Assembly: GCA_003221005.1 (NCBI GenBank)
Contig: QHTZ01000022.1
Coordinates: 1-21,024, forward strand
Direction of reading: 5' to 3'
Source: Gemmatimonadota bacterium
GTDB lineage: Bacteria; Gemmatimonadota; Gemmatimonadetes; Gemmatimonadales; GWC2-71-9
Length of the DNA stretch: 21,024 bases
Below are positions 1,345 through 17,972 of this stretch, piece after piece. A program made the translations under genes and the position numbers. A model generated the notes under the pieces. That model made no database searches, was not told the DNA's origin, and was given only the letters and a program-made list of their open reading frames with translations. The number at the start of each line of letters is the position of its first letter. Within the stretch, counting starts at the first letter, position 1.

Positions 1345-1432
1345 AAAGGCGTGGTGAGTGGTACGTGGTTCTTAACGGAGCGGCGGCCGGCCCCGGCGCC
1401 GCACCGAACCACTCACCACGCACCACGCCTTT
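1345..1432. repeat. Inverted pair of heptamer arrays (GTGGTGM / ACCACGC)
   Basis: 27-nt arms 1345-1371 and 1406-1432, 24/27 complementary. Confidence 0.85.
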
Positions 1433-1453
1433 AGTAAGTAGTTTTCCCCTTCC

Positions 1454-1894
1454 ATGCGTCCCACCTCCCTCACCTACTCCGGTGCCGTCGGCGCGCCGAT
1501 CGAAGAGGTCTTCGCGCTGCTCACCGACCCAAACCGCTTCCCGGAGTGGCTCCCCTACTGCCACGCCGTCAAACCCGCCCTGCGCCCCAACCGCAAAGGC
1601 GAGCGCCACCGCCTCATGTTCCAGAACGCCAAGCGCAAGACGACGGTCGAGATCGAGATCATCGAGTTCACCCCACCCACCGGCTACGGCTGGGTCGAGC
1701 TGCAACACCGCGCCGGCGCGAAAACCTTCTTCAAGCTGCAGTTCGCCGGCGGCGCCACGCTCGTCTCGATGAAACACGTCTGGACCCCGCCTACCTGGCG
1801 CGCCTGGCTGCTCGGCCAGCTGTACCGCCGCCGCGGCGCGCACCGGATGTTCGACGGGCTATTGCAGAACCTGCGAAAAGTCTTGACTCACTGA
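1454..1894 (+). CDS. SRPBCC/polyketide cyclase-family protein
   Basis: APIEEVFALLTDPNRFPEWLP is a typical START/SRPBCC N-terminus; C-terminal helix GLLQNLRKVL; GC3-rich frame. Confidence 0.85.
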   Translation: MRPTSLTYSGAVGAPIEEVFALLTDPNRFPEWLPYCHAVKPALRPNRKGERHRLMFQNAKRKTTVEIEIIEFTPPTGYGWVELQHRAGAKTFFKLQFAGGATLVSMKHVWTPPTWRAWLLGQLYRRRGAHRMFDGLLQNLRKVLTH

Positions 1895-1898
1895 TATG

Positions 1899-1973
1899 AG
1901 CCGCGCGCTGGGGACCCTTGCGAGGGTCGGGTGCCCGCTGGGCTGCCCGAGCAGGGGGCCCCAGCGCGCGGCT
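1899..1973. terminator. GC-rich hairpin between convergent genes
   Basis: AGCCGCGCGCTGGGG (1899-1913)/CCCCAGCGCGCGGCT (1959-1973) perfect 15-bp stem with further inner pairing; no U-tract. Confidence 0.5.
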
Positions 1974-2901
1974 AATCGGCGAAGGGAACCTCGATCGTCA
2001 TCCCATCCTTCGCCACCGTGACGTTGTCGAACACCGGCTTCGCCTCCTTCACAAGCTCCTCCGCACTAATCGAGTACCTCGCCGAAACATGACTCAGCAC
2101 AAGGCGGCGGGCTTTCGCGGCGAGCGCCACCTGCGCCGCCTCCTTCGCCGTCGAATGCCCCGTCTCCTTCGCCCGCTCCTTCTCCTCCTCCCCGAACGTC
2201 GCCTCGTGAATCAACAGATCGGCCCCCTGCGCGGCATCCACAACGCTCGCGCATGGCCGGGTATCGCCAGTGAACACAACCAAGCGCCCGGGACGCTTGG
2301 GACCGACAAAGCCGTCAGCCGCCAGCTTTCGGCCGTCAGCAAGCTCGATCGACTCGCCCTTTGAAAGCTTTCCCCACAACGGCCCCTCGGGTATCCCCGC
2401 AGCCCGGGCTTTCTCGACGTCGAACCGCCCCCGCCGCTCATGCTCCTTGAGCGCGTAACCGACCGATCCGCCGCCGTGCTCGGTCGCGAATACATGGATG
2501 TCGTAAGAACTGCGTGGTGCGTGGTGCGTGGTTATTAGGGCGCCCGGGGCCACCTCCTGGACTTGGACCTCGAAGGGGACCCGCTCCACTCCCAGGGAAA
2601 TGGCCTGAGTCAGGACCTTCTTTGCTCCCTTCGGGCCATAGAGGCGCATCGGCTCCTCCCGCCCCTGCAACCCCAGCGTGCGGATCAAGCCGATCACGCC
2701 GAGAAAATGATCGGCATGAAAGTGCGTGAAGAAGATCTCGGACAGCGCAAAGCTCACCCCGTAGCGCATCATTTGGCGCTGGGTGCCCTCGCCGCACTCG
2801 AACAGCAGGGTCTCACCTTCGCGCACGAGAGCGAGAGCGCTGACGTTCCGCTCGACGGTGGGCCGAGCAGCGCTGGTCCCAAGAAAAGTCACGGAAAGCA
2901 T
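1972..2901 (-). CDS. rnz: Ribonuclease Z
   Basis: FLGTSAARPT, THFHADH metallo-beta-lactamase motif, GIPEGP exosite, GDTRP, HEATF, GHST; ATG 2901 preferred because the upstream extension is repeat-derived. Confidence 0.95.
   Translation of the reverse strand: MLSVTFLGTSAARPTVERNVSALALVREGETLLFECGEGTQRQMMRYGVSFALSEIFFTHFHADHFLGVIGLIRTLGLQGREEPMRLYGPKGAKKVLTQAISLGVERVPFEVQVQEVAPGALITTHHAPRSSYDIHVFATEHGGGSVGYALKEHERRGRFDVEKARAAGIPEGPLWGKLSKGESIELADGRKLAADGFVGPKRPGRLVVFTGDTRPCASVVDAAQGADLLIHEATFGEEEKERAKETGHSTAKEAAQVALAAKARRLVLSHVSARYSISAEELVKEAKPVFDNVTVAKDGMTIEVPFAD
2511..2531. repeat. (TGCGTGG)3 in-frame inside rnz
   Basis: Three perfect heptamers = 21 nt, within the segment encoding TTHHAPRS. 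Confidence 0.85.
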
Positions 2902-2913
2902 GGGGCGAATATA

Positions 2914-2986
2914 ACGGGACACGGGAAACGAGAAACGGGAAACGTGCATGCACCACGTTTCCCGTTTCCCGTTTCTCGTGTCCCGT
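2914..2986. repeat. Inverted pair of heptamer arrays (ACGRGAA)
   Basis: 33-nt arms 2914-2946 and 2954-2986, 31/33 complementary, 7-nt loop; fills the mlaD-rnz gap. Confidence 0.9.
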
Positions 2987-3876
2987 CAAAAGACCTTAAC
3001 GGTCAGATAGCGCCCGGGTCGTTCTTTAAGATCTGTGAGCAGCGAGCTCAGCGCCGCCAGCGTCGCATTCAAGTTTTTATAAAGCATCGTATCCGTCGCC
3101 ATCCGGCCTAGCGTCCCCTCCCCCTTGTTCATCGTGGTGAGGAGCTCGTTCAACGACTTGGTCGCGGCAGCGAGATGGGCGCTGAGCTGGCCCAGGTTGG
3201 CGGTGAGCGTGTCGAGCCGGCGGCCGCTCGCGGCGGCATCGCGCGTGCCGAGCACTGAGTCGATCCGCGCCATCACGTTCTGCACCGTCTTCAAGGTCTG
3301 CGTCGTCTGCTGCACCATGGGACCGTTCGACGCCTCGGACAGCGCCTTCATGCCGCGCTGCGTGACCACGAGCGTGTTGTGCAGGTCGGCCGCGAGCTGG
3401 CCAGGATTCAACCCGCGGTTCACGTTCTCGATCAGCTGGCTCGCGTTGCTCGCCGCCCGCGACGCGATGTCCGCGAACTGCTCCTCGGCCACGCCGGGGA
3501 TCGGTGTGCCCTGGGCCAGCGGCTCGTCCTTCGCGCCGGGGTTGTAGGCCACGTACTTGGCGCCCAGGAAATCCGCCGAGGCGACGGCGGCGCTCGCGTC
3601 GGCGTGGGGCCGCACGTCGGAGCTGACCTGGATCGTGACGATCACCTTCCCCACCTTGTCCAGGTGCACCCGCGCCACCCGGCCCTTCGTCACGCCCGAG
3701 ACGCGCACCGGGTCCCCTTCCTTCAACCCGCTCACGTCCTTGAACACCACGTCCACCCCGATGCCCTTGCTCACGATCGAGCGGCCCGTGAGCCAGAACA
3801 TCCCGAGCGTGAACGCGACGAGGCCGAGGATCACGAGCGCCCCGACGCTCACCTCTTCCTTATAGCTAACTTCCAT
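2986..3876 (-). CDS. mlaD: MCE/MlaD family protein
   Basis: N-terminal TM, F.DVSGLKEGDPVRVSGV..GRV, FLGAKYV, helical region, GEGTLG and DLKERPGRY tail. Confidence 0.92.
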   Translation of the reverse strand: MEVSYKEEVSVGALVILGLVAFTLGMFWLTGRSIVSKGIGVDVVFKDVSGLKEGDPVRVSGVTKGRVARVHLDKVGKVIVTIQVSSDVRPHADASAAVASADFLGAKYVAYNPGAKDEPLAQGTPIPGVAEEQFADIASRAASNASQLIENVNRGLNPGQLAADLHNTLVVTQRGMKALSEASNGPMVQQTTQTLKTVQNVMARIDSVLGTRDAAASGRRLDTLTANLGQLSAHLAAATKSLNELLTTMNKGEGTLGRMATDTMLYKNLNATLAALSSLLTDLKERPGRYLTVKVF

Positions 3877-4651
3877 CTTTCCGCACGTTGGCCACCGACT
3901 CGGCCTGGATGAGGCTCATCTCGAGGTCGCGCTCCAGGAACTGGAGCACCGCGGCATCGCGGGAGCCGAGGATCTGCTCGGGGGTCCCGACCGCGCGGAT
4001 CTTCGACTGCCACAACAGCGCCACCCGGTCCGCCACCCGGAAGCTGCCGCGCACGTCGTGTGACACCACAACGCTCGTCACCCCCAGCTCGTCCCGCAGC
4101 CGCTCCACCAGCCCGTCGATCACGTCGGCATTCACCGGGTCGAGCCCCGAGGTGGGCTCGTCGTACAAGAGGTACTTGGGCTTCCCCGCGATCGCGCGCG
4201 CGATCCCCACGCGCTTCTTCATCCCCCCGGATAGCTCCGCCGGGTACTTCTCGGCGACGTCGGGGGCGAGGTTCACGAGCCGCAGACACTCGCGCACCCG
4301 GTCAGCGCAATAGCCGTCGTCGCTATAGCACGTCTCGTCGGTGATGCCGAGCCGGATGTTCTCGGCCACGGTGTCGGAATCGAACAGCGCCCCGTACTGG
4401 AACACGTAGCCGATGCGCGAGCGCAGCTCGGACAGCTCCCCGCGCTTGAGCCGCTGCACGTGCAGCCCGTCCACCACGACATCCCCCGCGTCGGGCCGCA
4501 GCAGCCCGTTGATCATCTTGAGGGTCACGCTCTTGCCGACACCCGAGGGGCCGAGCAGCGCCAGCGTCTCGCCGTCCCGCACCTCGAGACTCACGCCATC
4601 CAGGACCACGTTGTCGAGGAAGCGCTTGTGGATGTCGCTGAGCTGGATCAT
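3866..4651 (-). CDS. mlaF: ABC transporter ATP-binding protein MlaF
   Basis: GPSGVGKS Walker A, FQYGALFDS, LSGGMKKR, YDEPTSGLDP; ATG 4651 overlaps the mlaE stop (ATGA). Confidence 0.93.
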   Translation of the reverse strand: MIQLSDIHKRFLDNVVLDGVSLEVRDGETLALLGPSGVGKSVTLKMINGLLRPDAGDVVVDGLHVQRLKRGELSELRSRIGYVFQYGALFDSDTVAENIRLGITDETCYSDDGYCADRVRECLRLVNLAPDVAEKYPAELSGGMKKRVGIARAIAGKPKYLLYDEPTSGLDPVNADVIDGLVERLRDELGVTSVVVSHDVRGSFRVADRVALLWQSKIRAVGTPEQILGSRDAAVLQFLERDLEMSLIQAESVANVRKDGS

Positions 4652-5445
4652 TTGCCGAGCAACAGCTTCGTGATCACCACGTCGAGCAGCAGGATCGACA
4701 CCGACGCCGCCACGACCGCGGTGGTGGCCGCGCGCCCCACCCCTTCGGCCCCCTGCTGGGTGTTGTACCCGATGTAGCAGGGGATCACGGTGACGGCGCC
4801 CGCGAACCAGTAGCTCTTGATGAGCGAGTACCAGAGGTCGAGCGGCCGGAAGAAGAAGCGCGCCCCGTAGGTGAAGTCGGCGTCGGTGATGCCGAGCGAC
4901 TGCTTCGCCGTAATCCAGCCGACGAACAGCCCCATCCCGTTCGCGAACATCGTGAGCGCGGGGACCACCAGCAGGCCGGCGAGCACCCGCGGCAACAGGA
5001 GGTGCGAGATCGGGGAGCGGCCCAGGCTCTCGAGGGCATCGATCTGCTCGGTGACGCGCATCGTGCCGAGCTCGGCGGCGTAGCGGGCGCCGATCCGCCC
5101 CGCGAGGATCAGCCCCGTGAGCACGGGGCCGAGCTCGAGGATCATGGATTCGCTGATGACGGCGCCGGCGTAGTAGAGCGGCAGGGTGCCGGTGAACTGG
5201 TAGCCGGCCTGGAGGCTCGTCACCGCCCCCGCGAACCCGGCCACGAGCAGCACGATGAAGAGGCTGCCGAAGCCGACGCCGGTCGCCTGCTCGAAGGTGC
5301 GGGGGAGATAGATGCGCCACTCCGCGAGCCCGCGGAGCATGTCGATGAAGAGGTAGGTGAAGCGACCCGCGTGGCCGGCCGAGCGCAGCGTCCACCGCCC
5401 GACCAGCCGCCGCAGGTCAAGCGTGATCTCCGCCCGCCGCGCCAT
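4648..5445 (-). CDS. mlaE: ABC transporter permease MlaE
   Basis: ELGPVLTGLILAGRIGARYAAELGTMRVTEQIDALE, GAEGVGRAATTAVV; start 5445 or 5454. Confidence 0.93.
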   Translation of the reverse strand: MARRAEITLDLRRLVGRWTLRSAGHAGRFTYLFIDMLRGLAEWRIYLPRTFEQATGVGFGSLFIVLLVAGFAGAVTSLQAGYQFTGTLPLYYAGAVISESMILELGPVLTGLILAGRIGARYAAELGTMRVTEQIDALESLGRSPISHLLLPRVLAGLLVVPALTMFANGMGLFVGWITAKQSLGITDADFTYGARFFFRPLDLWYSLIKSYWFAGAVTVIPCYIGYNTQQGAEGVGRAATTAVVAASVSILLLDVVITKLLLGK

Positions 5446-5465
5446 GGCGTGCATATTGTGTAAGC

Positions 5466-6164
5466 ATGCCCCGTAAGTCCATCCCCCAAGCTCGTAAACC
5501 CCGGTCGGCGCAGCGCTTTAGACGGCTGCTCCTGGCGTGGTACGCCCGCGCCGCGCGCGACCTGCCGTGGCGCCGCACCCGCGATCCGTACCGCGTGCTC
5601 GTCTCCGAAGTGATGCTGCAGCAGACGCAGGTGAGCCGGGTGGCGGAATACTACCCGCGGTTCCTTGAGAAATTCCCGGATCTCAGGAGCCTAGCCTCGG
5701 CGCCCGCGCGCGCCGTGCGCGAGGCGTGGGATGGGCTCGGGTATTATGCGCGCGCGCGCAGTCTTCATGCGCTGGCGAGAAGCGTTGCCGGGAGAGGCGA
5801 GGCCGGAAGAGGCGTTGCCAAGTTGCCGGAAGATCCGCAGGAGCTCGTGAAGCTTCCCGGCATCGGCCCCTACACAGCTGGTGCCGTCGCGTCGTTTGCT
5901 TACGAGAAACCTGTTCCCGCCGTCGATACGAATGTGCGGCGGGTGTTACGGCGCGTTTTTCTAGGGGACGCGGGACGAGGGACCGGGGACGGGTACATCT
6001 GGGAACTGGCCAGGGCTCTCGTACCGAAAGACGGCAAGAGGGCGTGGCGATTCAATCAAGCGATTATGGAACTAGGGGCGCTCATATGCAGGGCAAGACG
6101 TCCGCAGTGCAGTCAGTGCCCAGTGAGACCAGTGTGCAGGACGGGAAAACGACTAGACGCATAG
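5466..6164 (+). CDS. mutY: A/G-specific adenine glycosylase, short form (no C-terminal MutT-like domain)
   Basis: RDLPWR, SEVMLQQTQV, WDGLGYYARA, HhH LPGIGPYTAGA, VDTNVRRV, C-x6-C-x2-C-x5-C Fe-S motif. Confidence 0.85.
   Translation: MPRKSIPQARKPRSAQRFRRLLLAWYARAARDLPWRRTRDPYRVLVSEVMLQQTQVSRVAEYYPRFLEKFPDLRSLASAPARAVREAWDGLGYYARARSLHALARSVAGRGEAGRGVAKLPEDPQELVKLPGIGPYTAGAVASFAYEKPVPAVDTNVRRVLRRVFLGDAGRGTGDGYIWELARALVPKDGKRAWRFNQAIMELGALICRARRPQCSQCPVRPVCRTGKRLDA
5965..5992. repeat. GGGACGN heptamer array in-frame inside mutY
   Basis: gggacgc gggacga gggaccg gggacgg, encoding GDAGRGTGDG. Confidence 0.8.
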
Positions 6165-6255
6165 ACGGACAGCGGTGAACAGATCTTAGTGAAGAGGGTT
6201 TTCCTCGAACTGGCGACTATTCACCACTGTGCGTCTGTGCGTCTAGTCTTTGCAT
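6151..6255. repeat. Inverted pair of octamer (YAGACGCA) arrays
   Basis: 29-nt arms 6151-6179 and 6220-6248 (26/29 complementary); left arm contains the mutY TAG. Confidence 0.85.
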
Positions 6256-6273
6256 CGGCTCGCCGCTATCCGT

Positions 6274-6735
6274 CTACGACCTACCAAGTGTCGCCGCAAA
6301 GAGCGCTATCAAGCCTAGCGATCCTGAAATTGTCGCGGCCAGGATCTGCCGCTTCCGTAGCCCGTGGAAGGCTTCCGGTAGCTCGCCTCGAGGGTCCACC
6401 TCGATCCGTGCCAGTCTAGCGGCCGTCGGGACACTTACGGCCATCGCCGCGATGGCGCCGAGGATCCCCGCTCCCATCATCACGTTGAGCCACACGGGCA
6501 TGTCGCCCGAGCGCATGTACGGCCCGCTCAGGACGAGCACGACGCCCGAGATGACGACGCCTGCCGCGCCCGGCCCGACGAGCAAGCGCTGGATCGCACC
6601 GATCAGCCGATAAGCCTTGAGGCGCTCGGCGGGAGCGAACCTCTTGGCGGTCACGCCAGCGACCATGGTGGCAATTCCGCCGCCCAGCCAGAGAGTGAAG
6701 CCGAGGACATGCACCAGTAACCAGAATCCACGCAT
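6274..6735 (-). CDS. Four-TM membrane protein (DUF2269/CopD-like)
   Basis: LLVHVLGFTLWLGG N-terminal helix and four hydrophobic segments; starts 3 nt after the upstream gene's stop. Confidence 0.75.
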   Translation of the reverse strand: MRGFWLLVHVLGFTLWLGGGIATMVAGVTAKRFAPAERLKAYRLIGAIQRLLVGPGAAGVVISGVVLVLSGPYMRSGDMPVWLNVMMGAGILGAIAAMAVSVPTAARLARIEVDPRGELPEAFHGLRKRQILAATISGSLGLIALFAATLGRS

Positions 6736-6738
6736 CGT

Positions 6739-7149
6739 CTACCCCCTCACCACTTCAGGGACGGGCTGCCGGCCTGCATATCCGGCCTCCAAGTCATGCC
6801 AGTGTTCAATCCTGTCCTCTCCCACTTTCCAGCACCAGAAAACGTCTCGGCCATCCAGCTTGCCGTAGAAATCCACGAGCCCCTGCTCGAATCCCTTGAA
6901 CACGCATCCCACCTGCTCCAGCTCCTCGAGGTACTGATTGATGTTGCGCGCCACGGCCTCGATGTCGCCGCGCAGCTCGAGCTGCTCGTTCGATTCGCCC
7001 CACTCGGGCCGAGCCTGAGCGGCGGCATACTCATAGCGATATACGAGCTCGCGCCACTTTGGGTACAGGGCAGTAATGTCGGCGACGACTCGTTTGACCA
7101 ACGGGAGAGTACGGTTGGCTTCGGCGAGTGTGAAATACTTACGAGGCAT
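6739..7149 (-). CDS. DUF2203 family protein
   Basis: FTLAEANRTLPLV...GCVFKG.EQGLVDF...FWCWKVGE.RIEHWH..EAGYAGRQP. Confidence 0.88.
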   Translation of the reverse strand: MPRKYFTLAEANRTLPLVKRVVADITALYPKWRELVYRYEYAAAQARPEWGESNEQLELRGDIEAVARNINQYLEELEQVGCVFKGFEQGLVDFYGKLDGRDVFWCWKVGEDRIEHWHDLEAGYAGRQPVPEVVRG

Positions 7150-7171
7150 GAGTCAAAAGTACTGCGGGGCA

Positions 7172-7197
7172 ATGCAAAGACTAGACGCATAGACGCA
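7172..7197. repeat. Octamer array, inverted copy of 6230-6255
   Basis: atgcaaagactagacgcatagacgca, 25/26 match to the reverse complement of 6230-6255; contains the patatin stop. Confidence 0.85.
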
Positions 7198-8008
7198 TTG
7201 CCCTGTTTGTCTCTTCGTACCCTGCCCTGTAGTACCTGTCCGCCTGTCCCATCGCAAACGTCGCCTCCCGCTCAGCCACCGCCCTCACGACTACGAGCCG
7301 TGGCGCGCTGCTCGGCCATTCCTCTATCGCCCTCTCCGTTTGGTCCGCCATCATGATGCGAATGGCCTCGCCGTGGGCGCGAATAAGAGCGGGCGGCATG
7401 AGGCGGGAAGGGGCGGTAAGGGGCGGCATAGGTTCGTCAAATCCCGGGCCAACGCTGATCGCAACGACCACATCGGCGGGGATCCGGGCCGCGACGCTGA
7501 GCGGCAGCACCGCGCGCAACCCTCCATCGGCAAGGCGACGGCCATCGAGCGTGGCCGCAGGAAAGTACAGCGGCAGCGCGCACGACGCGTACAGCACCTC
7601 GTGCAACGGAGCGTCCGCGCCGAGCGCGCCGAACAGCACCAATTCCCCGGAATCGACGTCGGTCGTGGTGACGGTGAGCGGGACCTTGAGATCGGCGAAG
7701 CGGGTCGCAGGGACGAGCCGGGCGATCGTGCGCCGCAGGGCGCCGGACTCGAGCAGGCTCGCGGCGAACATCCCCTTGAGGAGCGCCAGGGGATCGATCG
7801 CCGCGACATCTTTGCGGGTGAGCGCGCGCGCCGTCTCGAGCACCTGCTCCACGGTCGATCCTGCGGCGAACGCGGCCGCCATCACCGCGCCCATAGACGT
7901 GCCGACGATGTGGGTGATGCGTGCACCGCGCTCTTGCAGAGCCTTCCATGCGCCGGCGTGCGCGAGTGCCTTCGCCCCACCCCCACCCAGCACCAACACC
8001 ACCCTCAC
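7181..8008 (-). CDS. Patatin-like phospholipase
   Basis: LGGGGAK oxyanion loop, GTSMG nucleophile, DGG; GTG start overlaps the upstream stop. Confidence 0.92.
   Translation of the reverse strand: MRVVLVLGGGGAKALAHAGAWKALQERGARITHIVGTSMGAVMAAAFAAGSTVEQVLETARALTRKDVAAIDPLALLKGMFAASLLESGALRRTIARLVPATRFADLKVPLTVTTTDVDSGELVLFGALGADAPLHEVLYASCALPLYFPAATLDGRRLADGGLRAVLPLSVAARIPADVVVAISVGPGFDEPMPPLTAPSRLMPPALIRAHGEAIRIMMADQTERAIEEWPSSAPRLVVVRAVAEREATFAMGQADRYYRAGYEETNRAMRLCV
7391..7430. repeat. Decamer (GGGCGGTAAG-like) array in-frame inside patatin
   Basis: gggcggcatg aggcgggaag gggcggtaag gggcggcata, encoding MPPLTAPSRLMPP. Confidence 0.7.
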
Positions 8009-8493
8009 TATTCGCCTCTGCCCTGATCGTACCTCCGATGCATCACCCGCTCCGCCCTGCGCTTCGCCGCGCGGTTGTAGCGCCGCTTCTCGTCCGGGGT
8101 CTCGGGGACGATCGGTGGCACCTCGACGGGCTCGCCCGCGTCGTTAAGGGCGACGTAGGTGATGTAGCAGGAGTTGGTGTGGCGGCGCTCGCCGGTGAGC
8201 ACGTTCTCCGCGATCACCTTCACGCCCACCTCCATCGACGTCCGGCCGGTGAAGTTGACCTGCGCCATCGCGGTGACGAGCTCCCCGACCCGGATCGGCT
8301 CGCGGAAGTCGACCTTGTCCACCGACACGGTGACCGCGGGCCGGCGCGCGTGGCGGATCGCCGCCACCGCGGCGACGCGGTCCACCATCGCCAGCAGCAC
8401 CCCGCCGAACACGTTGCCCATGATGTTCGCGTGCTGCGGCATCATCAGCTCCGCGATCATCGCCTCTGATTCGCGTGGATGGCGTCCCTGCAT
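8008..8493 (-). CDS. Acyl-CoA thioesterase (HotDog, YciA-like)
   Basis: MPQHANIMGNVFGG, VDFREPIRVGE, GRTSMEVGV. Confidence 0.93.
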   Translation of the reverse strand: MQGRHPRESEAMIAELMMPQHANIMGNVFGGVLLAMVDRVAAVAAIRHARRPAVTVSVDKVDFREPIRVGELVTAMAQVNFTGRTSMEVGVKVIAENVLTGERRHTNSCYITYVALNDAGEPVEVPPIVPETPDEKRRYNRAAKRRAERVMHRRYDQGRGE

Positions 8494-8520
8494 CTGATGT
8501 CTGAGGTCTGAAGTCTCAGG
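8493..8520. repeat. TCTGANG heptamer array
   Basis: tctgatg tctgagg tctgaag tctcagg, abutting the thioesterase ATG. Confidence 0.8.
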
Positions 8521-8578
8521 AAACTACACCCTTTCCCAGCAATTGCGCCCGAGCCCACGCGCCCTACGTTTGCGGGCC

Positions 8579-9943: not shown

Positions 9944-9945
9944 GG

Positions 9946-10068
9946 GGGACGCGATCGGCGTCCAGGTCGATCCGTGCGTTGAAACGCCGGCTCGACCACA
10001 CCGCGTCCTTAAGGACGCGCATCAAGCCGAGCCGGCCCTTTAGGGCACGGGGACGCGACAGGCGCCCC
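9946..10068. repeat. Nested multi-hairpin REP-like element between convergent yfcC and nadE
   Basis: Perfect 18-bp palindrome CGCGTCCTTAAGGACGCG (10002-10019) flanked by GCCGGCTCG/CGAGCCGGC and CCGTGC/GCACGG arms. Confidence 0.7.
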
Positions 10069-10082
10069 CTGCGCCACGACTC

Positions 10083-11918
10083 CTAGTAGTCCACCGGTCT
10101 CAGATAAAACTCCCCGATCGCCGTCTGCGACATCACTGCGACCGTCGGCAGCCGCCGCTTCCAGTGCGTCGACTCGAGTCGCCGCCGCACCAGCTCCACT
10201 TCCGCGGCGGTGAAGCCGCGCGCCACGATCTCTTCGGGGCCCAGGTCTCGCAGCAGGTAATAGAGGATGCGATCGGCCTTCGGGTACGAGATCCCGAAGT
10301 CTCCTTCGTCCGTCTGGCCGTGGATCAGGTCGGCGGTGGCGGGCTTGGTGACGATCACCTCGGGCACGCCGACGTGCCGCGCCAGGGCCCACACCTGGGT
10401 CTTGAACAGGTCGCCGAGCGGGTTCACGGGAGGCGTGTCGTCGGCGTGCCAGGTGAAGTAGCCGAGCAGCCGCTCGGACTTGTTGCCGGTGCCGAGCGGC
10501 AGCGCCTGATGCTTGGCGGAGAGATCGAACAGCACGATCATCCGCTGGCGCGCCATCACGTTGCCCTTGCGCGCGGGATCGGCGTCGCCCACCTGCTTCA
10601 GGTATCCGTCCACGGCTTCACTGATATCGACGGTGACGGATGGGATGCCGAGCTTGTCGATGACGAGCTGGGCGTGCTCCATGCTCTCGGGACTCGAGGT
10701 GCGATACGGCATCCGCACGCCGATCACGTTCTCCCGCCCCAGCGCCTCGGCGGCGAGAAAGGCGGTGAGCGACGAGTCTACGCCCCCTGAGAGCCCGACG
10801 ATTCCCTTCTTGAATCCGCGGCGTACGACGACTTCGTCCTTCAGGAACGACACGAGCCAGCGGCGCGCGAGCTCGACGTCGATCGCGAGGGGGTCGCCTT
10901 CCTCAACCCCTCTCCCGACCACGTGCACCGGGACGGGGGACGAGGGACGAGGGACGGGTTGTTTCGTGGCACGAGCTGGGTCAAACTTGACCTTTGGCTT
11001 CTTACCCGTCCCGCGTCCCCCGTCCCTCTTCCCCAGGTTCTTGACGAGATGAGGCAACGCCACTTCGAGATCCGCGAGCAACGGCGCGTCGGCGCGAGCG
11101 CGCGTGATCTCCTCGAGATTCACATCCGCCGTCACGATCGCTTCCTCGAACAGGGGCCCGCGCACGAGAATCTGCCCTTGAGGACTCACGACGACCGAGC
11201 CCCCCGGGAATCCTTTCCCGCCCTCGAACCCCACAAGGCTCGCGTACACGACGTACACGCCGTGCTCCTCGGCGAGCCCTCGCACCGTGCGCTCCCAGCG
11301 CACCACGCTCGCGGGAAGGCTCACGCCGCCCTCGTCCACCGTGCCTTCGGTGCCGCGCGCCGGAGAGGCCGAGGGCAACACGATGAGCTGCGCGCCGTCC
11401 AGGGCCGCGAGCGTCGCGGTGAGCGAGTGCCAGGCGTCCTCGCAGATCAGGATCGCCGCCCGACCCCAGCGCGTATCGAAAGCCCGCACCTCGTGTCCCC
11501 GCTCCACGAAGCGCTCCTCGTCGAACACGCCGTAGGTGGGGAGGAAGACCTTGCGGTGGACGTGCCGAATTCCGGGTGAGGCGTTGCCGGAAGAGGCGGT
11601 GCCGAGTGAGGCGTACAGACAGGAGTTGTAGAAGCGATTCTGGAACACTTCGTAGAAGCCGACCGCCACGTCGAGCGGAGGCGCGTGCGCCGCCCGGTGC
11701 TGCTCGACGAGATCCCGGAACAGCGTTCCTGCGGTCACGGCGACCTCGCGCACGCCTCCCTCGACGAAGTACCCAGACGTCGCAGCCTCCGGGAACGCGA
11801 CGAGGTCGACCGGTGGATCGAGCTTGGCGACCTGCGCCAGCACGCCGCCGATGCGCTGCAGGTTGGCGGCGTACTCGCCCTTGGTGGGGCGGATTTGCGC
11901 GATCGCGAGGCGGAGCAT
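10083..11918 (-). CDS. nadE: Glutamine-dependent NAD+ synthetase (nitrilase-fold glutaminase fused to synthetase)
   Basis: FPE, HRK, ICED triad motifs; GLSGGVDSS, GNVMARQRM, GTGNKSE, DLFKTQV, KPATADL..GQTDE; ATG 11918 preferred. Confidence 0.93.
   Translation of the reverse strand: MLRLAIAQIRPTKGEYAANLQRIGGVLAQVAKLDPPVDLVAFPEAATSGYFVEGGVREVAVTAGTLFRDLVEQHRAAHAPPLDVAVGFYEVFQNRFYNSCLYASLGTASSGNASPGIRHVHRKVFLPTYGVFDEERFVERGHEVRAFDTRWGRAAILICEDAWHSLTATLAALDGAQLIVLPSASPARGTEGTVDEGGVSLPASVVRWERTVRGLAEEHGVYVVYASLVGFEGGKGFPGGSVVVSPQGQILVRGPLFEEAIVTADVNLEEITRARADAPLLADLEVALPHLVKNLGKRDGGRGTGKKPKVKFDPARATKQPVPRPSSPVPVHVVGRGVEEGDPLAIDVELARRWLVSFLKDEVVVRRGFKKGIVGLSGGVDSSLTAFLAAEALGRENVIGVRMPYRTSSPESMEHAQLVIDKLGIPSVTVDISEAVDGYLKQVGDADPARKGNVMARQRMIVLFDLSAKHQALPLGTGNKSERLLGYFTWHADDTPPVNPLGDLFKTQVWALARHVGVPEVIVTKPATADLIHGQTDEGDFGISYPKADRILYYLLRDLGPEEIVARGFTAAEVELVRRRLESTHWKRRLPTVAVMSQTAIGEFYLRPVDY
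10930..11033. repeat. Inverted pair of GGGACGR heptamer arrays in the nadE interdomain linker
   Basis: 30-nt arms 10930-10959 and 11004-11033, 44-nt spacer, all in frame. Confidence 0.85.
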
Positions 11919-11930
11919 GAGGGAAAGATA

Positions 11931-11969
11931 GACGGTAAGGGGCGGTAAGAGACGGTAAGGGGCGGTAAG
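11931..11969. repeat. (GRCGGTAAGR)4 decamer array
   Basis: gacggtaagg ggcggtaaga gacggtaagg ggcggtaag, directly upstream of the putative nadE -10 box. Confidence 0.9.
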
Positions 11970-11975
11970 TAAAAT

Positions 11976-12003
11976 GTAGGGGCACGGCATGCCGTGCCCC
12001 TAC
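11976..12003. repeat. GTAG-type REP palindrome
   Basis: Perfect 28-bp palindrome GTAGGGGCACGGCATGCCGTGCCCCTAC. Confidence 0.8.
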
Positions 12004-12030
12004 TGTCCGTCCGGTTCCTATCGCCCTGAG

Positions 12031-13252
<1,222 letters not shown>

Positions 13253-13276
13253 AAGCCCCTCCCTCCTCGTCGTTTA

Positions 13277-13317
13277 ACAATACCCTAGCACGGGGCAGCA
13301 GTTCAAGAACCGTACCG
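13277..13317 (-). promoter_or_regulatory. Candidate promoter of the DUF4384-like gene
   Basis: TTGAAC-18-TATTGT (sigma70-like) overlapping CGGTACGGTTCTTGAA (sigma54-like spacing, GA instead of GC). Confidence 0.3.
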
Positions 13318-13414
13318 CACGGCCCGAAGCGCTGCGACGCGATCTCGAGGGCAGGTTTGTCCCCGGCAGGGTACAGTTGTTCCGCGCGCGATACGTGCGC
13401 GGCGTCACAACCTG

Positions 13415-14245
13415 CTACCAGCGATCGGGCTTGCCCGCGTCGGGGACGAACAGGCTGGCCTGGAAGCGTTCCTTTCCGAATTCCCCGATCAGCTTTTGGG
13501 CTTCGGGGGCGACGAGGAAATCCGCCAGCGCCCGGCCGCCGCGGACGTTCACGCGGGGAGAATTCTGCGGGTTGATCTCGAGGACGTGGTACACGTTATA
13601 AAGGAGAGAGTCGCCCTCGACCAGTGGGACGAGCTGCAGCCTGTCGCGCCAAGCGACGTACGTGGCGCGATCGGTGAGGATGTACGCCTGCTTCTCGTCG
13701 GCGAGCTGGAGCGCCGCCCCCATCCCCTGGCCCGACTCGATGTACCAGCTCCCGGCGGGCGGTGGCGTGACCGCCGCCCGGCGCCACAGCTCGAGCTCCC
13801 GCTGGTGCGTCCCAGAGCGGTCGCCCCGGGACACGAACCGGGCGTGTCGCTCGGCGATGCGCGTCACGGCAGCGACCGCGGCGTTCATTCCTCTGACGCT
13901 CGCGGGATCCGCGGCGGGGCCCACGATGAGAAAGTCGTTGTGCATCACGAGTCGCCGCGTCACGAAGTACCCCGAGTCCGTGAGCGCCCGCTCCGCCGCG
14001 GGGGCGTGCGCCAGCACGAGGTCTGCGTCGCCGCGGCGGCCGAGCTCGAGCGCCTGGCCGCTGCCGACGGCGATCAGCGTGACGCGATAGCCTGTCTGCC
14101 GCTCGAACAGCGGCAAGAGCACGTCGAGCAGCCCGGCGTCGCGGGTGGAGGTGGTGGTGGCGAGGCGAATCTGAGTGGACTGGGCGGCAAGGGGCGGTAC
14201 GGGGCGGTAGAGGGCGGTAAGGACGACCGCGGCTCGCGCGAGCAT
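13415..14245 (-). CDS. tupA: Tungstate ABC transporter substrate-binding protein
   Basis: RLATTTST.DAGLL, VGSGQAL..GRRGDAD, MHNDF.IVGP..DPA, FVSRGDRSGTH, GQGMG; start 14245 or 14299. Confidence 0.9.
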   Translation of the reverse strand: MLARAAVVLTALYRPVPPLAAQSTQIRLATTTSTRDAGLLDVLLPLFERQTGYRVTLIAVGSGQALELGRRGDADLVLAHAPAAERALTDSGYFVTRRLVMHNDFLIVGPAADPASVRGMNAAVAAVTRIAERHARFVSRGDRSGTHQRELELWRRAAVTPPPAGSWYIESGQGMGAALQLADEKQAYILTDRATYVAWRDRLQLVPLVEGDSLLYNVYHVLEINPQNSPRVNVRGGRALADFLVAPEAQKLIGEFGKERFQASLFVPDAGKPDRW

Positions 14246-14292
14246 CGTGCCGCACTCCCGCCCCTTACCGCCTCCTACCGCCCCGTACCGCC
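14183..14292. repeat. Inverted pair of decamer arrays straddling the tupA start
   Basis: 14193-14222 versus 14263-14292, 28/30 complementary, plus an extra unit 14183-14192. Confidence 0.88.
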
Positions 14293-14316
14293 TTCTCATC
14301 CTGCTAGCTTAGCACC

Positions 14317-14817
14317 GTGGCGACCACACGCCAGCTGCTCGACGCCCTCGCCGGCGTTCTCAACGCGCGCGAGCCGTTTCCAGGCCTAGCGACGGGCGGG
14401 CAGCCGGAAGCCGCGCACCTCGCCGCTCTGAAGGCGGCGGGATGCGACGTGGTCATCGACGTGCGCGATCCGATGGAGCCGCAACCATTCGACGCACCCG
14501 CCGCGATCCGCGCGGCGGGGCTCGCCTACGTCAACATCCCCGTCCCTCACTCGGCGCCCGAGGACCGCACGCTCGACGCGGTGCGTCACGCGATGCAGGA
14601 GATCACGGCGAAACGGCAGCGCGCGTTCATTTACTGCAATTCGGGGAACCGCGTCGGGGCAGCGCTGATCCCGTACCTGATGCTCGACTGCGGATTCGCC
14701 GAGGACGCCGCCGTGACGGCCGCGATGCAAATAGGAACGCGCAGCGCGGAGCTGATCGAGGGGGCGCTCGACTACGTGAGGCGGCAAGGGGCGGCAGGGG
14801 GCGGCAAGGAACACTGA
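14317..14817 (+). CDS. DUF442/Blh-like phosphatase-fold (sulfur transferase) protein
   Basis: TGGQP, VID.R...E, AGLAYVNIPV, YCNSGNR CX5R loop; GTG start. Confidence 0.85.
   Translation: MATTRQLLDALAGVLNAREPFPGLATGGQPEAAHLAALKAAGCDVVIDVRDPMEPQPFDAPAAIRAAGLAYVNIPVPHSAPEDRTLDAVRHAMQEITAKRQRAFIYCNSGNRVGAALIPYLMLDCGFAEDAAVTAAMQIGTRSAELIEGALDYVRRQGAAGGGKEH
14780..14809. repeat. (GGCGGCARGG)3 decamer array in the 3' end of the DUF442 gene
   Basis: ggcggcaagg ggcggcaggg ggcggcaagg. Confidence 0.75.
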
Positions 14818-14848
14818 GGTGGCGGTGCCGTAGAACGCTGTGCCCGCG

Positions 14849-15211
14849 TCAGGGGTTACGGTGCCAATACAGCCGCATCTCGCTGATCTTGCCGTCCTTC
14901 GTCTCGCAGAAGATCGCGCCGCGCGTGTCGACCTGCTCTCCGGTGCGACGGCGGCGGTAGGTGCAGCGGAACTCCGTGGCGAACCACGGGCCGGCGCTGT
15001 AAATCTCACCGGACCGAAAGGAAACCTCCGCCTGGTTGGCGGGGACGTCCTTCCAGTAGTCCCGGACCGCGGCGATGCCCTTCGCCGGGTCGGTGAAGGG
15101 TGCCTCGAGAAACGTGGCGTCGGGCGTGAACACGGAGGCGATCGCCTCCAGGTCGCCCCGCTCCCACGCGACGCCGAAGGTGTCGACGAGCGTGCGATAG
15201 GCCTCGCTCAT
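14849..15211 (-). CDS. SnoaL/NTF2-family protein
   Basis: AWERGDLEAIASVFTPDA...G..AVRDYW...DGKISEMRLYW; ATG 15211 preferred. Confidence 0.88.
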   Translation of the reverse strand: MSEAYRTLVDTFGVAWERGDLEAIASVFTPDATFLEAPFTDPAKGIAAVRDYWKDVPANQAEVSFRSGEIYSAGPWFATEFRCTYRRRRTGEQVDTRGAIFCETKDGKISEMRLYWHRNP

Positions 15212-15243
15212 GGCGCCCAATATACTCACAGGAGGATCGAACG

Positions 15244-15624
15244 ATGCTGCAGCGAATCCTGGCCTCGACTGCCGTGCTCGCCTGTCTCGCGCTGCCGCTG
15301 GCCGCGCAGGGACAGCCGGCTGCCGGCGGCGGCAACGAAATGACGATCACCGGTCAGGTGATCGACGTGAACTGTCATACGACGATGGGCGCCTCCGGGG
15401 CCGGGCACAAGCAGTGCGCCCAGGCGTGCGCCAAGGCGGGCGTCGCCCTCGCCATCCTGGGGAGCGACGGCACGATCTACATGCCGGTGAGCTCGAAGGC
15501 CGGCGACCCGCAGAACTCGAAGCTGATCGATTTCGCCGAAGGCAAGGTGAAGGTCACGGGCATTCATCGCTACGTCAGCGGGCTGCACACGATCGAGATC
15601 AAGACGGTCGCAGCCGCGACCTGA
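15244..15624 (+). CDS. Secreted small Cys/His-motif protein
   Basis: SD AGGAGG, signal peptide, CH-x9-H-x2-C-x3-C motif, beta-rich remainder. Confidence 0.8.
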   Translation: MLQRILASTAVLACLALPLAAQGQPAAGGGNEMTITGQVIDVNCHTTMGASGAGHKQCAQACAKAGVALAILGSDGTIYMPVSSKAGDPQNSKLIDFAEGKVKVTGIHRYVSGLHTIEIKTVAAAT

Positions 15625-15625
15625 G

Positions 15626-16990
15626 ATGGCCCGCGCGCTGGGCGCCGCGCTGCTCGCAGCGGCGCTCGCCGCCTGCCAGCTGGCGGCGCCCAGCCTTACC
15701 CTCCTCTTCCTCGGCCGCTCACCCGCGGCCAGCATGGGCGGCCACTCCTGGGCGCCCGACCCCGACTCGAGCCGGATCGTCGCGTTCGACGGCACGCTGC
15801 GCGTCGCCAAGGTGTTCACGAGCGCGCGGCTCGCCACGCCGATCGCCGTCGCGCCCCTCGGAGGCGGGGCCAACCTGCTCGTGAGCGAGCGCACCGGCCA
15901 GGGCGTCGTCTTCGACACGAGCGGACGCGCCGTGCGCGAGTGGGAGAGCCCCGACCCCGCGGACATCTACGCCGCTGCCCTCGGGCGTGACCGCGTCGCC
16001 GCCGCGCGCTCCCCGTACGACGTGGCGTTTGTGGCGGAGCCCGACACTGCCCCCTTGCTCCGAATCCTCGACACCCTGGGAAAACCCGTCGGGCGGCTCG
16101 GCACTGTGCACCTGCCAACGGTGCCCTTCCTCGCGCAGCTCGCGAACGCGGGCGCCGTGACAACCGACGCGAGCGGCGCCGTGTATTTCGCGCGCCTCGT
16201 GCGGGACGAGATCGTCAAGTACGACGCGACCGGCGCGCCCCGGTGGAGCGCCACGCGGGGTCGCTTCGCCAAGGAGACGGATCCGGTCTTCATCCCGCCT
16301 CGGCCGGGGGCGCGCGACATCGCCGCCCGCTACGCGATCGTGAACATCGCGCTCGCGCTCGGCCCCGACGGGAAGCTGTACGCGCTCGGGGGGAGCGACT
16401 CGGCGGCGACCGAGCTGCGCCTCGACGTCCTGGACACCGCGTCAGGGAAGATCGTCGCGACTCGCGCGCTGGGGCCGCGGGAGACGGCGGTCGCGGTCAC
16501 ACGACAGGGCCGGCTGGAGACGTTCGACGCGGAGACACTGCTCGCGCGCGCGGGCGGCGGGCGGCGCGAAGCCTTCAGCCCACCGTTCGCGCTTCCCGAC
16601 CTGCATGGCGACACCGTGCGACTCGCCGCGCTCGCAGGCAAGGTGACGCTCATCAACTTGTGGGCGTCGTGGTGCGACCCTTGCCGCGAGGAGTTCCCCC
16701 ACATGGCGGAGCTGTATCAGGAGTTCCCGCGCAGCGATTTCGCCATCGCCGCGATCTCGGACGACGTCGATCTCGGCAAGATGCTCGGCTTCGTGCGCGA
16801 GTTCCGGCCGCCGTTCCCGATTCTCGTCGGCGGCGGACGGATGAAGCAGATCTACCACTACCGCGGGCTGCCGTACTCGGTGCTACTCGACCGCCACGGC
16901 CGGGTCATCGAGCGGATCTTTGGGTTCGGGGGCGCGGAAGAGTTCAAATCCCTGCGTTCCACTATTGCAAAGGAGGTTCAGGCTCCCTAG
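15626..16990 (+). CDS. Lipoprotein: beta-propeller-like region plus TlpA-family thioredoxin
   Basis: LAAC lipobox; blade-like repeats (DTSG, DTLG, DASG, DATG, GPDGKLY, DTASG); GKVTLINLWASWCDPCREEFP, GLPYSVLLDRHG. Confidence 0.85.
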   Translation: MARALGAALLAAALAACQLAAPSLTLLFLGRSPAASMGGHSWAPDPDSSRIVAFDGTLRVAKVFTSARLATPIAVAPLGGGANLLVSERTGQGVVFDTSGRAVREWESPDPADIYAAALGRDRVAAARSPYDVAFVAEPDTAPLLRILDTLGKPVGRLGTVHLPTVPFLAQLANAGAVTTDASGAVYFARLVRDEIVKYDATGAPRWSATRGRFAKETDPVFIPPRPGARDIAARYAIVNIALALGPDGKLYALGGSDSAATELRLDVLDTASGKIVATRALGPRETAVAVTRQGRLETFDAETLLARAGGGRREAFSPPFALPDLHGDTVRLAALAGKVTLINLWASWCDPCREEFPHMAELYQEFPRSDFAIAAISDDVDLGKMLGFVREFRPPFPILVGGGRMKQIYHYRGLPYSVLLDRHGRVIERIFGFGGAEEFKSLRSTIAKEVQAP

Positions 16991-17000
16991 CCTATAGCCC

Positions 17001-17972
17001 GTGTCCGACGCCACCCGTCCCTCTTCCCCCGTCCCTCTTCCCCTAGTAATCGATACCGACCCCGGCATCGACGACACCCTCGCGCTGTATCTCGCGCTGA
17101 ATTCGCCGGAGCTCGATGTGCGGGGAATCTCGGTCTCGTACGGCAACACGACCGTCGAGAACGCCTACCGCAACGTCGTCGAGATCCTGCGGCAGGGGGG
17201 CAAGCGGGCGCGGCTCGCCGTGGGGGCGCGCCGCCCGATCGCGCGCCCGTTGCGCACAGCGCGCGAGACGCACGGCGCGACGGGGCTCGGCTACGCGGCG
17301 GTCCCACCCGCGGGGGTGATTCTCGATTTCGTGCGGCCGTTGGAGCGGTTGCTGGCGGAGCAGGAAGATCGCGTCACGCTCGTGACGCTCGGACCACTCA
17401 CGAGTCTCGCCCTCGCGCTGCGGCGCGAGCCGGAGCTCGTCCGGGCCAAGGTGGCGCGCCACATCGCCATGGTCGGCAACCTCAAGGCGAAGGGCAATAC
17501 CACCAAGTTCGCCGAGTTCAACGCCTGGTGCGACCCCGAAGCGCTCGCGACCGTGCTCGCAGCGGAGCTGCCGAGCGAGATGGTGGGGCTCGACGTGACG
17601 CGCCAGGTCGTGCTCTCGGCGGCGGACGTGAGCCGGCTCGGCGCGAGCGAGGCGCCGCGCGCGCGCTGGCTGTTCGAGGCGCTGCGCTTCTACGTGGAGT
17701 TCCACCGCGACCACGAGGGGCTCGAGGGGTGCGTGGTGAACGACGTGCTGCCGATCGCGGCGCTGCTCGAGCCCACGGTGCTCACGTTCCAGCCGGTGCG
17801 GATCGCGGTCGATCTGAATGAGGATGACCGCCGCGGCCGCACGCGTGAGACGAAAGACGGCGCCGCCGCGTTGTTCGCCCGGGAGGTGCAGGTGGACGCC
17901 GTGCGGTCGCTGCTCTCGAAGCGGGTATTCCGCTGGGCTACGGCGGCGGAGCCCGCGGGAGCGGCGCGGTGA
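17001..17972 (+). CDS. Nucleoside hydrolase family protein
   Basis: DTDPGIDD, YGN, HG.TGLG, LGPLT, AEFNAWCDPEA, VGLDVT. Confidence 0.9.
   Translation: MSDATRPSSPVPLPLVIDTDPGIDDTLALYLALNSPELDVRGISVSYGNTTVENAYRNVVEILRQGGKRARLAVGARRPIARPLRTARETHGATGLGYAAVPPAGVILDFVRPLERLLAEQEDRVTLVTLGPLTSLALALRREPELVRAKVARHIAMVGNLKAKGNTTKFAEFNAWCDPEALATVLAAELPSEMVGLDVTRQVVLSAADVSRLGASEAPRARWLFEALRFYVEFHRDHEGLEGCVVNDVLPIAALLEPTVLTFQPVRIAVDLNEDDRRGRTRETKDGAAALFAREVQVDAVRSLLSKRVFRWATAAEPAGAAR
17015..17042. repeat. (CCGTCCC TCTTCCC)2 array in the nucleoside hydrolase N-terminus
   Basis: Same units as the nadE right arm; encodes RPSSPVPLP before the conserved LVIDTD. Confidence 0.8.

Follow-up and report, generated by a model that had tools for sequence, protein, structure and literature searches.

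Inverted short tandem arrays at gene junctions and in reading frames of a Gemmatimonadales genome resemble gene-less forms of four-helix-bundle gene cassettes

What are the short tandem arrays that lie between and inside the genes of a Gemmatimonadota bacterium, some of them facing a complementary array, and to which system do they belong? The question is raised by a stretch of 21,024 nt from contig C80 (QHTZ01000022.1), all of which is here called the window. The contig is part of a 2.79-Mb genome (141 contigs, 69% G+C, assembly completeness 94%) whose closest named relatives are soil Gemmatimonadales metagenome-assembled genomes (MAGs). This genome under study is labelled G000 and its relatives G001-G032; C and L denote contigs and loci. 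An initial annotation, made from the sequence alone, had listed 13 array loci in the window and had taken them for empty, non-autonomous forms or scars of a mobile system defined by architecture rather than by sequence. Our analysis supports this view of their build: the arrays can be read as arms of a cassette in which a G-rich array (about four units of 7-10 nt) would be followed by a small four-helix-bundle gene (TIGR02436/PF05635) and by the complementary array, the window holding gene-less versions.

All 13 loci were recovered when arrays were detected with Tandem Repeats Finder (TRF) and inverted pairs with an inverted-repeat scan. The three to four copies per arm described previously are correct in general, except that arms of the YAGACGCA family have about two units; the five complete inverted pairs were all found again, together with a sixth that had been missed, at 1072-1190. 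The window contains gene-less forms only, namely six two-armed hairpins and eight single arms. Each of the six pairs consists of two complementary tandem arrays in inverted orientation and folds into a long single-strand stem (-60 to -85 kcal/mol, z -6.1 to -12.4), and for all six pairs 0/200 shuffles were as stable.

Such arrays are more frequent than chance predicts. Counting periods of 7, 8 or 10 with at least three copies, the window has 15 arrays compared to ~0.6 expected. The chance level was taken from first-, third- and fifth-order Markov simulations of the 2.79-Mb genome, which gave 59-88 arrays per 2.79 Mb, or ~0.4-0.7 per 21 kb. Genome-wide, we found 267 arrays of period 7 (29-42 simulated), 125 of period 8 (21-33 simulated) and 46 of period 10 (9-13 simulated). 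The merged set, which also includes period 11 and in which overlaps were joined, amounts to 484 arrays; the same filter applied to the simulations leaves 104-138. This one genome contains dozens of unit families, with units of 7, 8 and 10 nt and many of them without G-runs; for example, ACGGGGG accounts for 47 arrays, AATGCGG for 25, AAGGGGG for 21 and AAACGGG for 18.

The copy number peaks at four for every period (160/267 arrays of period 7, 83/125 of period 8 and 27/46 of period 10), and the median arm length is 29 nt at periods 7 and 8 and 37 nt at period 10. It is therefore the unit count that is conserved, not the arm length. Pairs are also polar: among 77 inverted pairs of the same unit with a spacer of at most 150 nt, the purine-rich arm is 5' in 75, the reverse order is found in 0 and 2 are ambiguous. 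Because the elements are two-fold symmetric, this order, with the G-rich arm first, is valid on both strands. In the 43 hairpins with spacers of at least 20 nt, no spacer resembles that of another hairpin and 41 are single-copy in the genome. With 0 spacers common to any two of these hairpins, copy-and-paste of whole elements is unsupported; we also rejected the idea that pairs arose by fold-back (snap-back) duplication, spacer palindromicity being 0.479 compared to 0.476 in random genomic DNA. About 60% of the arrays (307/484) are single. Hidden partners for these single arms were mostly rejected, since a weak nearby partner (17 of 21 matches) was found for 37/319 single arrays compared to 10 in the control.

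The arrays are linked by position to one gene family. G000 has six TIGR02436 four-helix-bundle genes, and the genome scan for enclosed genes that the initial annotation had suggested finds all six (6/6) between inverted arrays, in agreement with its proposal that the arrays are empty forms of a system defined by architecture. TRF reports both arms at three of these genes and one arm at another; the remaining arms were read by eye. No four-helix-bundle gene is present in the window, and because no TIGR02436/PF05635 gene lies between arms there, we file the window elements as gene-less derivatives and not as full members. In a survey of 39 TIGR02436 genes from G000 and its relatives, made at a permissive threshold and with no chance control, 25 genes have TRF arrays to the left and to the right, 7 have one on a single side and 7 have none.

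One of the six is the cassette on contig C132, whose gene is PF05635. It shares with the gene-less hairpin at 6148-6255 of the window the same arms, ~13 nt of inner sequence and an outer CTTTGCA word, and the single arm at 7172 also matches its arm family. At least seven gene-less hairpins of this YAGACGCA family are found in G000; they have in common the arms, a GCAAAG word outside these and ~13 subterminal nt. C132-type cassettes occur upstream of mnmG (GIDA) in related MAGs, across the order, and CTAGRCG-type arms, matched with a loose pattern, are found on both sides in 21/39 C132-type loci. The gene of such a cassette encodes a helical bundle of 126 aa in which no catalytic domain is recognisable; the closest solved relative is 2GSC (XCC0516), deposited with 5 chains. 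A cassette with a TIGR02436 gene and with arms of the ACCACGC family, a unit family also present in the window, is found in relative G002. Furthermore, similarity of cassette proteins tracks similarity of units (Spearman -0.28, 160 non-independent pairs): proteins that are 79% identical have identical units, and those that are 57-68% identical have a common GGCGG core.

Two loci show unusual arrangements. At C39:138-840 of G000, an AATGTCC hairpin lies directly after a 5S rRNA gene and comes with a four-helix-bundle gene, in the order left arm, right arm, gene, right arm, which places a cassette at the end of an rRNA operon. In L062 (G016:C91), inverted 8-mers TAAGTCGC / ACTTAGCG at 13498-14087 enclose a crcB-like host gene and not a four-helix-bundle gene. 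Since these arrays bracket a host gene, two adjacent elements can mimic a cargo-bearing cassette.

Array density also suggests a link to the gene, by one clean case and noisy support. The congener G004 has 0 TIGR02436 genes at a marker completeness of 100%, and its 9 arrays in 221 kb correspond to 4.1 per 100 kb compared to a chance level of 3.7-4.9. The density is 17.3 per 100 kb in G000 and 5.0-28.3 in five other congeners. Small random samples of four further genera without a TIGR02436 gene give 3.3-6.7 arrays per 100 kb.

Congeners and sister genera share the gene order of the window, which allows the same slots to be compared across relatives. Between the stop of the mlaD-like gene and the start of the MBL-fold hydrolase gene, G000 has a gene-less hairpin of ACGGGAA units (ACGRGAA family, x4.6 / x4.4) at 2913-2986, with 33-nt arms that are 94% complementary and a 7-nt gap (-61.9 kcal/mol, z -12.4). 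The same junction is occupied by a 10-mer hairpin in G003 and by a TIGR02436 cassette in G015, G016 and G017. Downstream of the MutY-like glycosylase gene, the YAGACGCA hairpin of G000 (6148-6255, 35-nt arms, 34-nt gap, -62.2 kcal/mol, z -10.4) is replaced by a 10-mer hairpin in G003 and by a cassette in G015, the protein of which resembles the C132 type; the junction is empty in G001, G002, G004, G005, G006 and G016. The MutY-like gene takes its last codons and its stop from the first units of the G000 hairpin. At the same positions, relatives thus have cargo-filled, empty and motif-swapped alleles, the three kinds that the initial annotation had proposed to look for, as well as vacant ones.

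Slots inside genes show the same turnover of units. The MBL-fold hydrolase gene (1972-2901, minus strand) carries in frame a single arm of three CCACGCA units, read on the coding strand, at 2511-2532. This insert of 6-7 codons (three heptamers) is present in G000, G002, G003, G005, G006 and G015 and absent from 14, and its unit is CCACGCA in G000 and of GGGAAGS type in the other five carriers. A loop of the MutY-like gene holds GGGACGR x3.9 in the window (5965-5991, plus strand) and arrays of GGCAACG in G003, CGGGAAA in G016 and GGGAAGG in G017. In the patatin-like gene, the single in-frame 10-mer arm GGGCGGCAAG x3.8 (GGCGGTAAGG family; 7391-7428, minus strand) has related 10-mer arrays at equal distance from the stop in G002 and G003. 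Locus L041 (G032, flagged as unpublished) is a row in the MutY and patatin orthologue alignments only and underlies no count or claim.

The gene for glutamine-dependent NAD synthetase (nadE) contains a complete inverted pair of GGGACGR units in frame in its interdomain linker (10930-11034, minus strand; 30-nt arms, 44-nt gap, -65.2 kcal/mol, z -6.1). Here the unit is GGGACGG in G000 and GGGAAGS, CATTCCG, the 8-mer GGCGGGAA or GGGGGCA in relatives of the same family; the arrays surround a conserved K-F-D-P core, and the linker has no array in order-level relatives and in the congener G004. Upstream of the same gene, a single 10-mer arm (GGCGGTAAGG/GACGGTAAGA, 20-nt super-period) at 11930-11983 lies immediately 5' of the TATCTTTCCC word and the nadE start, and relatives have arrays of 8, 10 or 12 nt, or none, adjoining a conserved TATCTTT word. 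The longer form TATCTTT(C/T)CCC (11919-11931), a few bases before the nadE ATG, is kept in most relatives (L002-L020) and could serve as a -10-like element in a leaderless mRNA or one with a short leader. The N-terminal extension of the nucleoside hydrolase is formed by a single arm CCCGTCC/CTCTTCC x4.3 (GGGACGR family; 17014-17043, plus strand). A CGCGTCC array lies at the same place in G001, and in G005 and G006 the matches begin at residue 12 and are without the array extension. For the single arm TCTGAGG x4 (TCTGANG family, 8493-8520), which lies 33 nt upstream of a thioesterase start, no TRF array was found at the corresponding position in the syntenic stretches of nine relatives. Arrays fixed and identical at orthologous sites in distant relatives had been named as a result that would speak against the initial proposal. 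The slots do vary; one cassette keeps a fixed place upstream of mnmG throughout the order.

Around the first of these slots (window 1972-2901 and loci L056, L057 and L059) the MBL gene is inverted relative to mlaD in G002, G005 and G006 compared to G000, G003, G015, G016 and G017. In G002 the inverted gene is flanked by arrays of the ACCACGC family, which suggests an inversion mediated by arrays.

Over shorter times the arrays are stable. Metagenome contig L178 is 98.1% identical to 2183-7614 of the window, and all six array intervals it covers (6/6, one strain) are unchanged; the variation in unit number between close strains that defines contingency loci is not seen in these intervals of this one strain. 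A metagenome scan found no allele without the 2913-2986 hairpin (0 contigs), a result that carries little weight because the control scan for filled alleles found only 1 contig. In L178 a patch of ~150 nt in the MutY-like gene (5670-5815 in the window) is strongly diverged, with the rest ~98% identical, and in this patch a 15-nt in-frame repeat GCGTTGCCGGGAGAR is present in four copies compared to three in the window.

The initial annotation's view of the build is supported by these data; for the mobility that it also proposed, no target duplication, shared spacer or link to a transposase was found. Based on the absence of signs of mobility, the unchanged strain and the fixed cassette, we consider the elements to be old residents with slow turnover, neither active jumpers nor hypervariable repeats.

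Next, we examined where the arrays are placed relative to genes. With our own codon-usage gene caller, 226/484 arrays are at gene ends or intergenic compared to 87 for random placement, 258/484 are inside predicted coding sequence compared to 397, and 25/77 short pairs have both arms within predicted coding sequence. These positional counts are approximate because the MutY-like gene, at least, escapes the caller. Whichever of the six frames is read, the most abundant unit families contain no stop codon. In-frame sites of the window are the nadE linker (full pair), the MBL-fold hydrolase, the MutY-like and patatin-like loops, the signal-peptide region of a binding protein, the C-terminus of the gene at 14317-14817 and the N-terminus of the nucleoside hydrolase. 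Elsewhere in G000, in-frame GGGACGG/CCCGTCC arrays at C52:862-1162, C120:37377-38139 and C8:53761-54540 can be read from their translations as linkers (GRGTGD and PVPRPSSP segments) in apparent 2-oxoacid dehydrogenase E2 and peptidase genes. The strand bias of single arrays is weak: on the coding strand, 35 are C-rich and 46 G-rich at gene starts, 64 are G-rich and 38 C-rich at gene stops, and inside genes the corresponding counts are 106 and 53.

What could maintain such a build? We lean towards an explanation in which the arms are rows of about four predicted binding sites for a cognate four-helix-bundle oligomer that acts on DNA. The cognate protein would keep the arms uniform, so that arrays would decay after loss of the gene, and the polarity of the arms would go back to a shared geometry of recognition. 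The elements would reside for long times in permissive slots (gene junctions, interdomain linkers, surface loops and protein termini). Their turnover would take place on the time scale of genera to families, a slot gaining or losing the gene or exchanging one unit family for another. We infer the binding, the oligomeric state and the rewriting activity. A speculative alternative cause of the polarity is that, with the G-rich arm first, a C-rich, Rho-attracting RNA may never be unpaired in either direction of transcription.

A stronger form of this explanation is less probable, and we put it forward tentatively. The arrays would be maintained binding-site arrays of protein-guided cassettes that lack a transposase, with paralogue-specific words of 7-10 nt, in about four copies, in dozens of slots, including in-frame sites in essential genes. 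Each paralogue, probably a pentamer, would recognise its own word and could overwrite that of another paralogue, and after gene loss the whole array population would fall to chance level, as in G004.

Several observations weigh against the binding-site explanation. The link between protein and arrays is drawn from position only, and the AATGCGG, AAGGGGG and AAACGGG families (25, 21 and 18 arrays) have no cognate gene in an assembly that is 94% complete. The G004 contrast is that of one lineage; G022 has no gene and yet 22.2 arrays per 100 kb (GC-rich, low-complexity arrays), and G025 and G002 have 8 and 6 genes but only 1.7 and 5.0 arrays per 100 kb. A two-ended cassette leaves the ~60% of single arrays (307/484) unexplained. 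The MutY and patatin arrays fill loops with no net gain in length compared to orthologues, and the nadE arms flank a host-conserved core; both fit a local origin better than insertion.

A local origin would follow from polymerase slippage on words of 7-10 nt, in situ and in unconstrained DNA, with gene proximity and the resemblance between loci being secondary. Loops and linkers filled without added length, the unique spacers (0/43 similar, 41/43 single-copy) and a nadE linker that stays occupied across the family while its unit drifts are all in line with slippage. Nevertheless, slippage predicts a broad spread of copy numbers instead of a sharp mode of four, and variation between strains, whereas the strain that differs at 1.9% of sites has 6/6 arrays unchanged. 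It also does not predict complementary partners of one polarity (75 to 0), one unit at many loci (47 ACGGGGG arrays) or the chance-level arrays of the congener G004, which is of similar G+C, and we consider it very unlikely. Ordinary miniature inverted-repeat elements that depend on a trans-acting transposase from another locus, for example a Y1 (RAYT-like) enzyme, would have the inverted termini and the many gene-less and few gene-bearing copies that we see. The YAGACGCA family, with its common arms, subterminal sequence and outer GCAAAG word at no fewer than seven loci, resembles such elements, and G000 has two Y1_Tnp genes. Both of these genes, however, are flanked by a separate class of non-tandem palindromes and not by arrays, so that the repeats flanking a RAYT gene that mark REP/REPIN elements are lacking for the arrays. 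Shared internal sequence and target duplications, expected of miniature elements, are not found either: there are 0 spacer matches among 43 hairpins, no internal sequence is common within a family, and element ends of the YAGACGCA family, read by eye, have no target-site duplication. A reverse transcriptase was not found in G000, and no near-identical copies indicate recent movement. We regard movement of this kind as highly improbable.

Two further explanations concern function in nucleic acid folding. The arrays could be G-quadruplex regulatory repeats of the Xanthomonas GGGAATC or Nostoc GGGGAYT type that tune expression near gene ends, the four-helix-bundle gene being an occasional passenger. 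The published repeats have a four-unit preference, 70-75 convergent pairs per genome, positions no more than 50 bp from the ends of open reading frames (ORFs) and quadruplex formation in vitro (Rehm et al. 2015, excerpts of PMC4692102). The arrays studied here likewise show the four-unit mode and convergent inverted pairs near ORF ends, their G-rich arm is always 5', and 334/484 have four runs of at least two G. However, the canonical four-by-GGG motif occurs in only 115/484, and the 39 arrays without any GG run still peak at four copies (20/39, median 3.9), and for these reasons quadruplex folding is unlikely to be a general rule. In addition, a quadruplex has no need for a complementary arm, and the enclosed genes (6/6) and the loss of arrays in the gene-less congener G004 would be unexplained, which makes this an unlikely account. 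Alternatively, the elements could be processing or terminator stems in RNA, placed between cistrons as RNase III targets or stabilisers of transcript ends and selected on the sense transcript. The stems of at least 30 bp (-60 to -85 kcal/mol) and the enrichment at gene boundaries (226/484 compared to 87 expected) agree with this, as does the Coxiella intervening sequence (IVS), in which a 28-bp stem with heptamer repeats and an S23p ORF is cut by RNase III (Warrier et al. 2016, excerpts of PMC4990558). Selection on sense RNA should leave a strand asymmetry, and none was found in 52 hairpins of known direction: the sense stem is better in 25 and the antisense stem in 27, with 105 compared to 109 G-U pairs. 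Because the stems are equally stable on both strands, a role at the level of DNA is favoured. Moreover, 25/77 pairs with both arms and 258/484 arrays are inside predicted coding sequence, cleavage at the nadE pair would destroy the message, and most arrays are single and cannot form a stem. An origin as RNA stems is in our opinion improbable.

Further arrays complete the series in the window. The newly found pair at 1072-1190, in the interval between tRNA-Gln and tRNA-Ala, consists of TACGTCGC 8-mers with 32-nt arms (88% complementary, 55-nt gap, -73.4 kcal/mol, z -6.25) and includes a TRF array of period 8 and 2.6 copies at 1077-1097; Rfam finds only two tRNAs in the window. The ACCACGC-family pair at 1345-1432 is flanked by tRNA-Ala and a polyketide-cyclase-like gene (-59.8 kcal/mol, z -7.8). 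Between the patatin-like stop and the DUF2203 start, the single YAGACGCA arm at 7172-7198, with an outer TGCAAAG word, supplies the stop codon of the patatin-like gene. An inverted pair of 10-mers GGGCGGTAAG (GGCGGTAAGG family; 14182-14292, minus strand, -85 kcal/mol, z -7.95) spans the start codon of the periplasmic binding-protein gene, and one arm encodes the signal-peptide region. Finally, a single 10-mer arm GGCGGCAAGG x3 (GGCGGTAAGG family; 14780-14809, plus strand) supplies the gene at 14317-14817 with its last codons. The only runs listed as containing the window sequence are soil DNA runs, with no RNA run among them.

Other repeats are also present. The REP-like palindrome at 9972-10050 is of a different class from the arrays, and its family flanks both sides of the Y1 (RAYT-like) gene at C27:17889-18305 (region C27:17650-18420); the second Y1 gene, C66:6398-6736, has its own palindrome family. 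G000 therefore has a system of REPIN-RAYT type alongside that of the tandem arrays. Next to the array upstream of nadE, at 11976-12003, lies a perfect 14+14 palindrome (GTAGGGGCACGGCA and its complement) that recurs near C80 24950, beside another YAGACGCA arm ~13 kb downstream. Beyond the array and this palindrome, a C run of 77 nt (89% C, poly-G on the minus strand) at 12053-12129 could be real or an artefact of assembly or sequencing.

Two loose ends meet at these loci, the excess of heptamer repeats in bacteria and the role of the PF05635/TIGR02436 family. We know of no role for this widespread family of small proteins; to our knowledge, its members have been met only in rRNA intervening sequences and as relatives of the Avd protein of diversity-generating retroelements. 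If the tentative paralogue-specific version of the binding-site explanation is true, it would give a function to the family and a cause to the heptamer excess. G000 and its relatives offer an unusually rich test bed: there are dozens of unit families and six cognate genes, the congener G004 is a natural knockout, and some essential genes carry copies in frame. Should the protein bind its own arms, direct tests in vitro would become possible. The in-frame copies also show how array DNA adds linkers, signal-peptide segments and termini to proteins.

Among known systems, REPIN-RAYT works in a broadly similar way: one gene, inherited vertically, has its own repeats on either side, and many gene-less hairpins persist at gene junctions, in orthologous positions. 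It differs in that the gene here encodes a 126-aa helical bundle and not an HUH transposase and the arms are tandem arrays; moreover, the RAYT-like genes of G000 carry a separate palindrome family, of which 9972-10050 is one copy. Rickettsia palindromic elements, which are in-frame palindromes of 100-150 bp and conserved sequence in protein-coding genes, share the in-frame tolerance, whereas here only the build is conserved.

The heptamers GGGAATC of Xanthomonas campestris and X. axonopodis and GGGGAYT of Nostoc PCC 7120 (Rehm et al. 2015, PMC4692102) have the same build. In the excerpts of that paper they have the four-unit mode, frequent convergent pairs with the G-rich arm first, a dispersed distribution with no link to insertion sequences, and positions within ~50 bp of ORF starts or stops, at times overlapping the stop (PMC4692102). 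They differ by having essentially one unit per genome, a quadruplex reading, scarcity in coding DNA and no gene link, and the excerpted text does not mention four-helix-bundle genes (PMC4692102); G000 has dozens of families, over half of its arrays in predicted coding sequence and every TIGR02436 gene enclosed. The STRR heptamers of heterocystous cyanobacteria and TAACTGA of Beggiatoaceae (MacGregor 2015, excerpts of PMC4679880) are also over-represented tandem heptamers, in 2-6 copies, near start codons and of unexplained origin, but TAACTGA is almost always direct (169 direct, 1 inverted) and intergenic, with no link to an enclosed gene reported in those excerpts.

The 23S IVS of Coxiella burnetii (28-bp stem, heptamer repeats, S23p ORF; Warrier et al. 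2016, PMC4990558) and of Leptospira is another close system. In the excerpts considered, a PF05635/TIGR02436 ORF lies within inverted repeats with a ~28-bp stem, and internal tandem heptamers vary in copy number between strains (PMC4990558). It is sited in 23S helix 45 and excised by RNase III (PMC4990558), whereas the G000 elements are between or inside protein-coding genes, mostly gene-less and without a sense-RNA signature. In the window they lie between or inside protein-coding and tRNA genes, and a 23S rRNA gene is absent from the G000 assembly. A full-text search, with subscription journals and supplements outside its scope, returned no paper linking the four-helix-bundle family to tandem-array arms. 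The repeat class itself is already in print, in the Xanthomonas and Nostoc heptamers and in the 23S IVS; what is added here is a census of many families in one genome, the four-unit and polarity rules, the series of in-frame slots and a natural gene-less congener.

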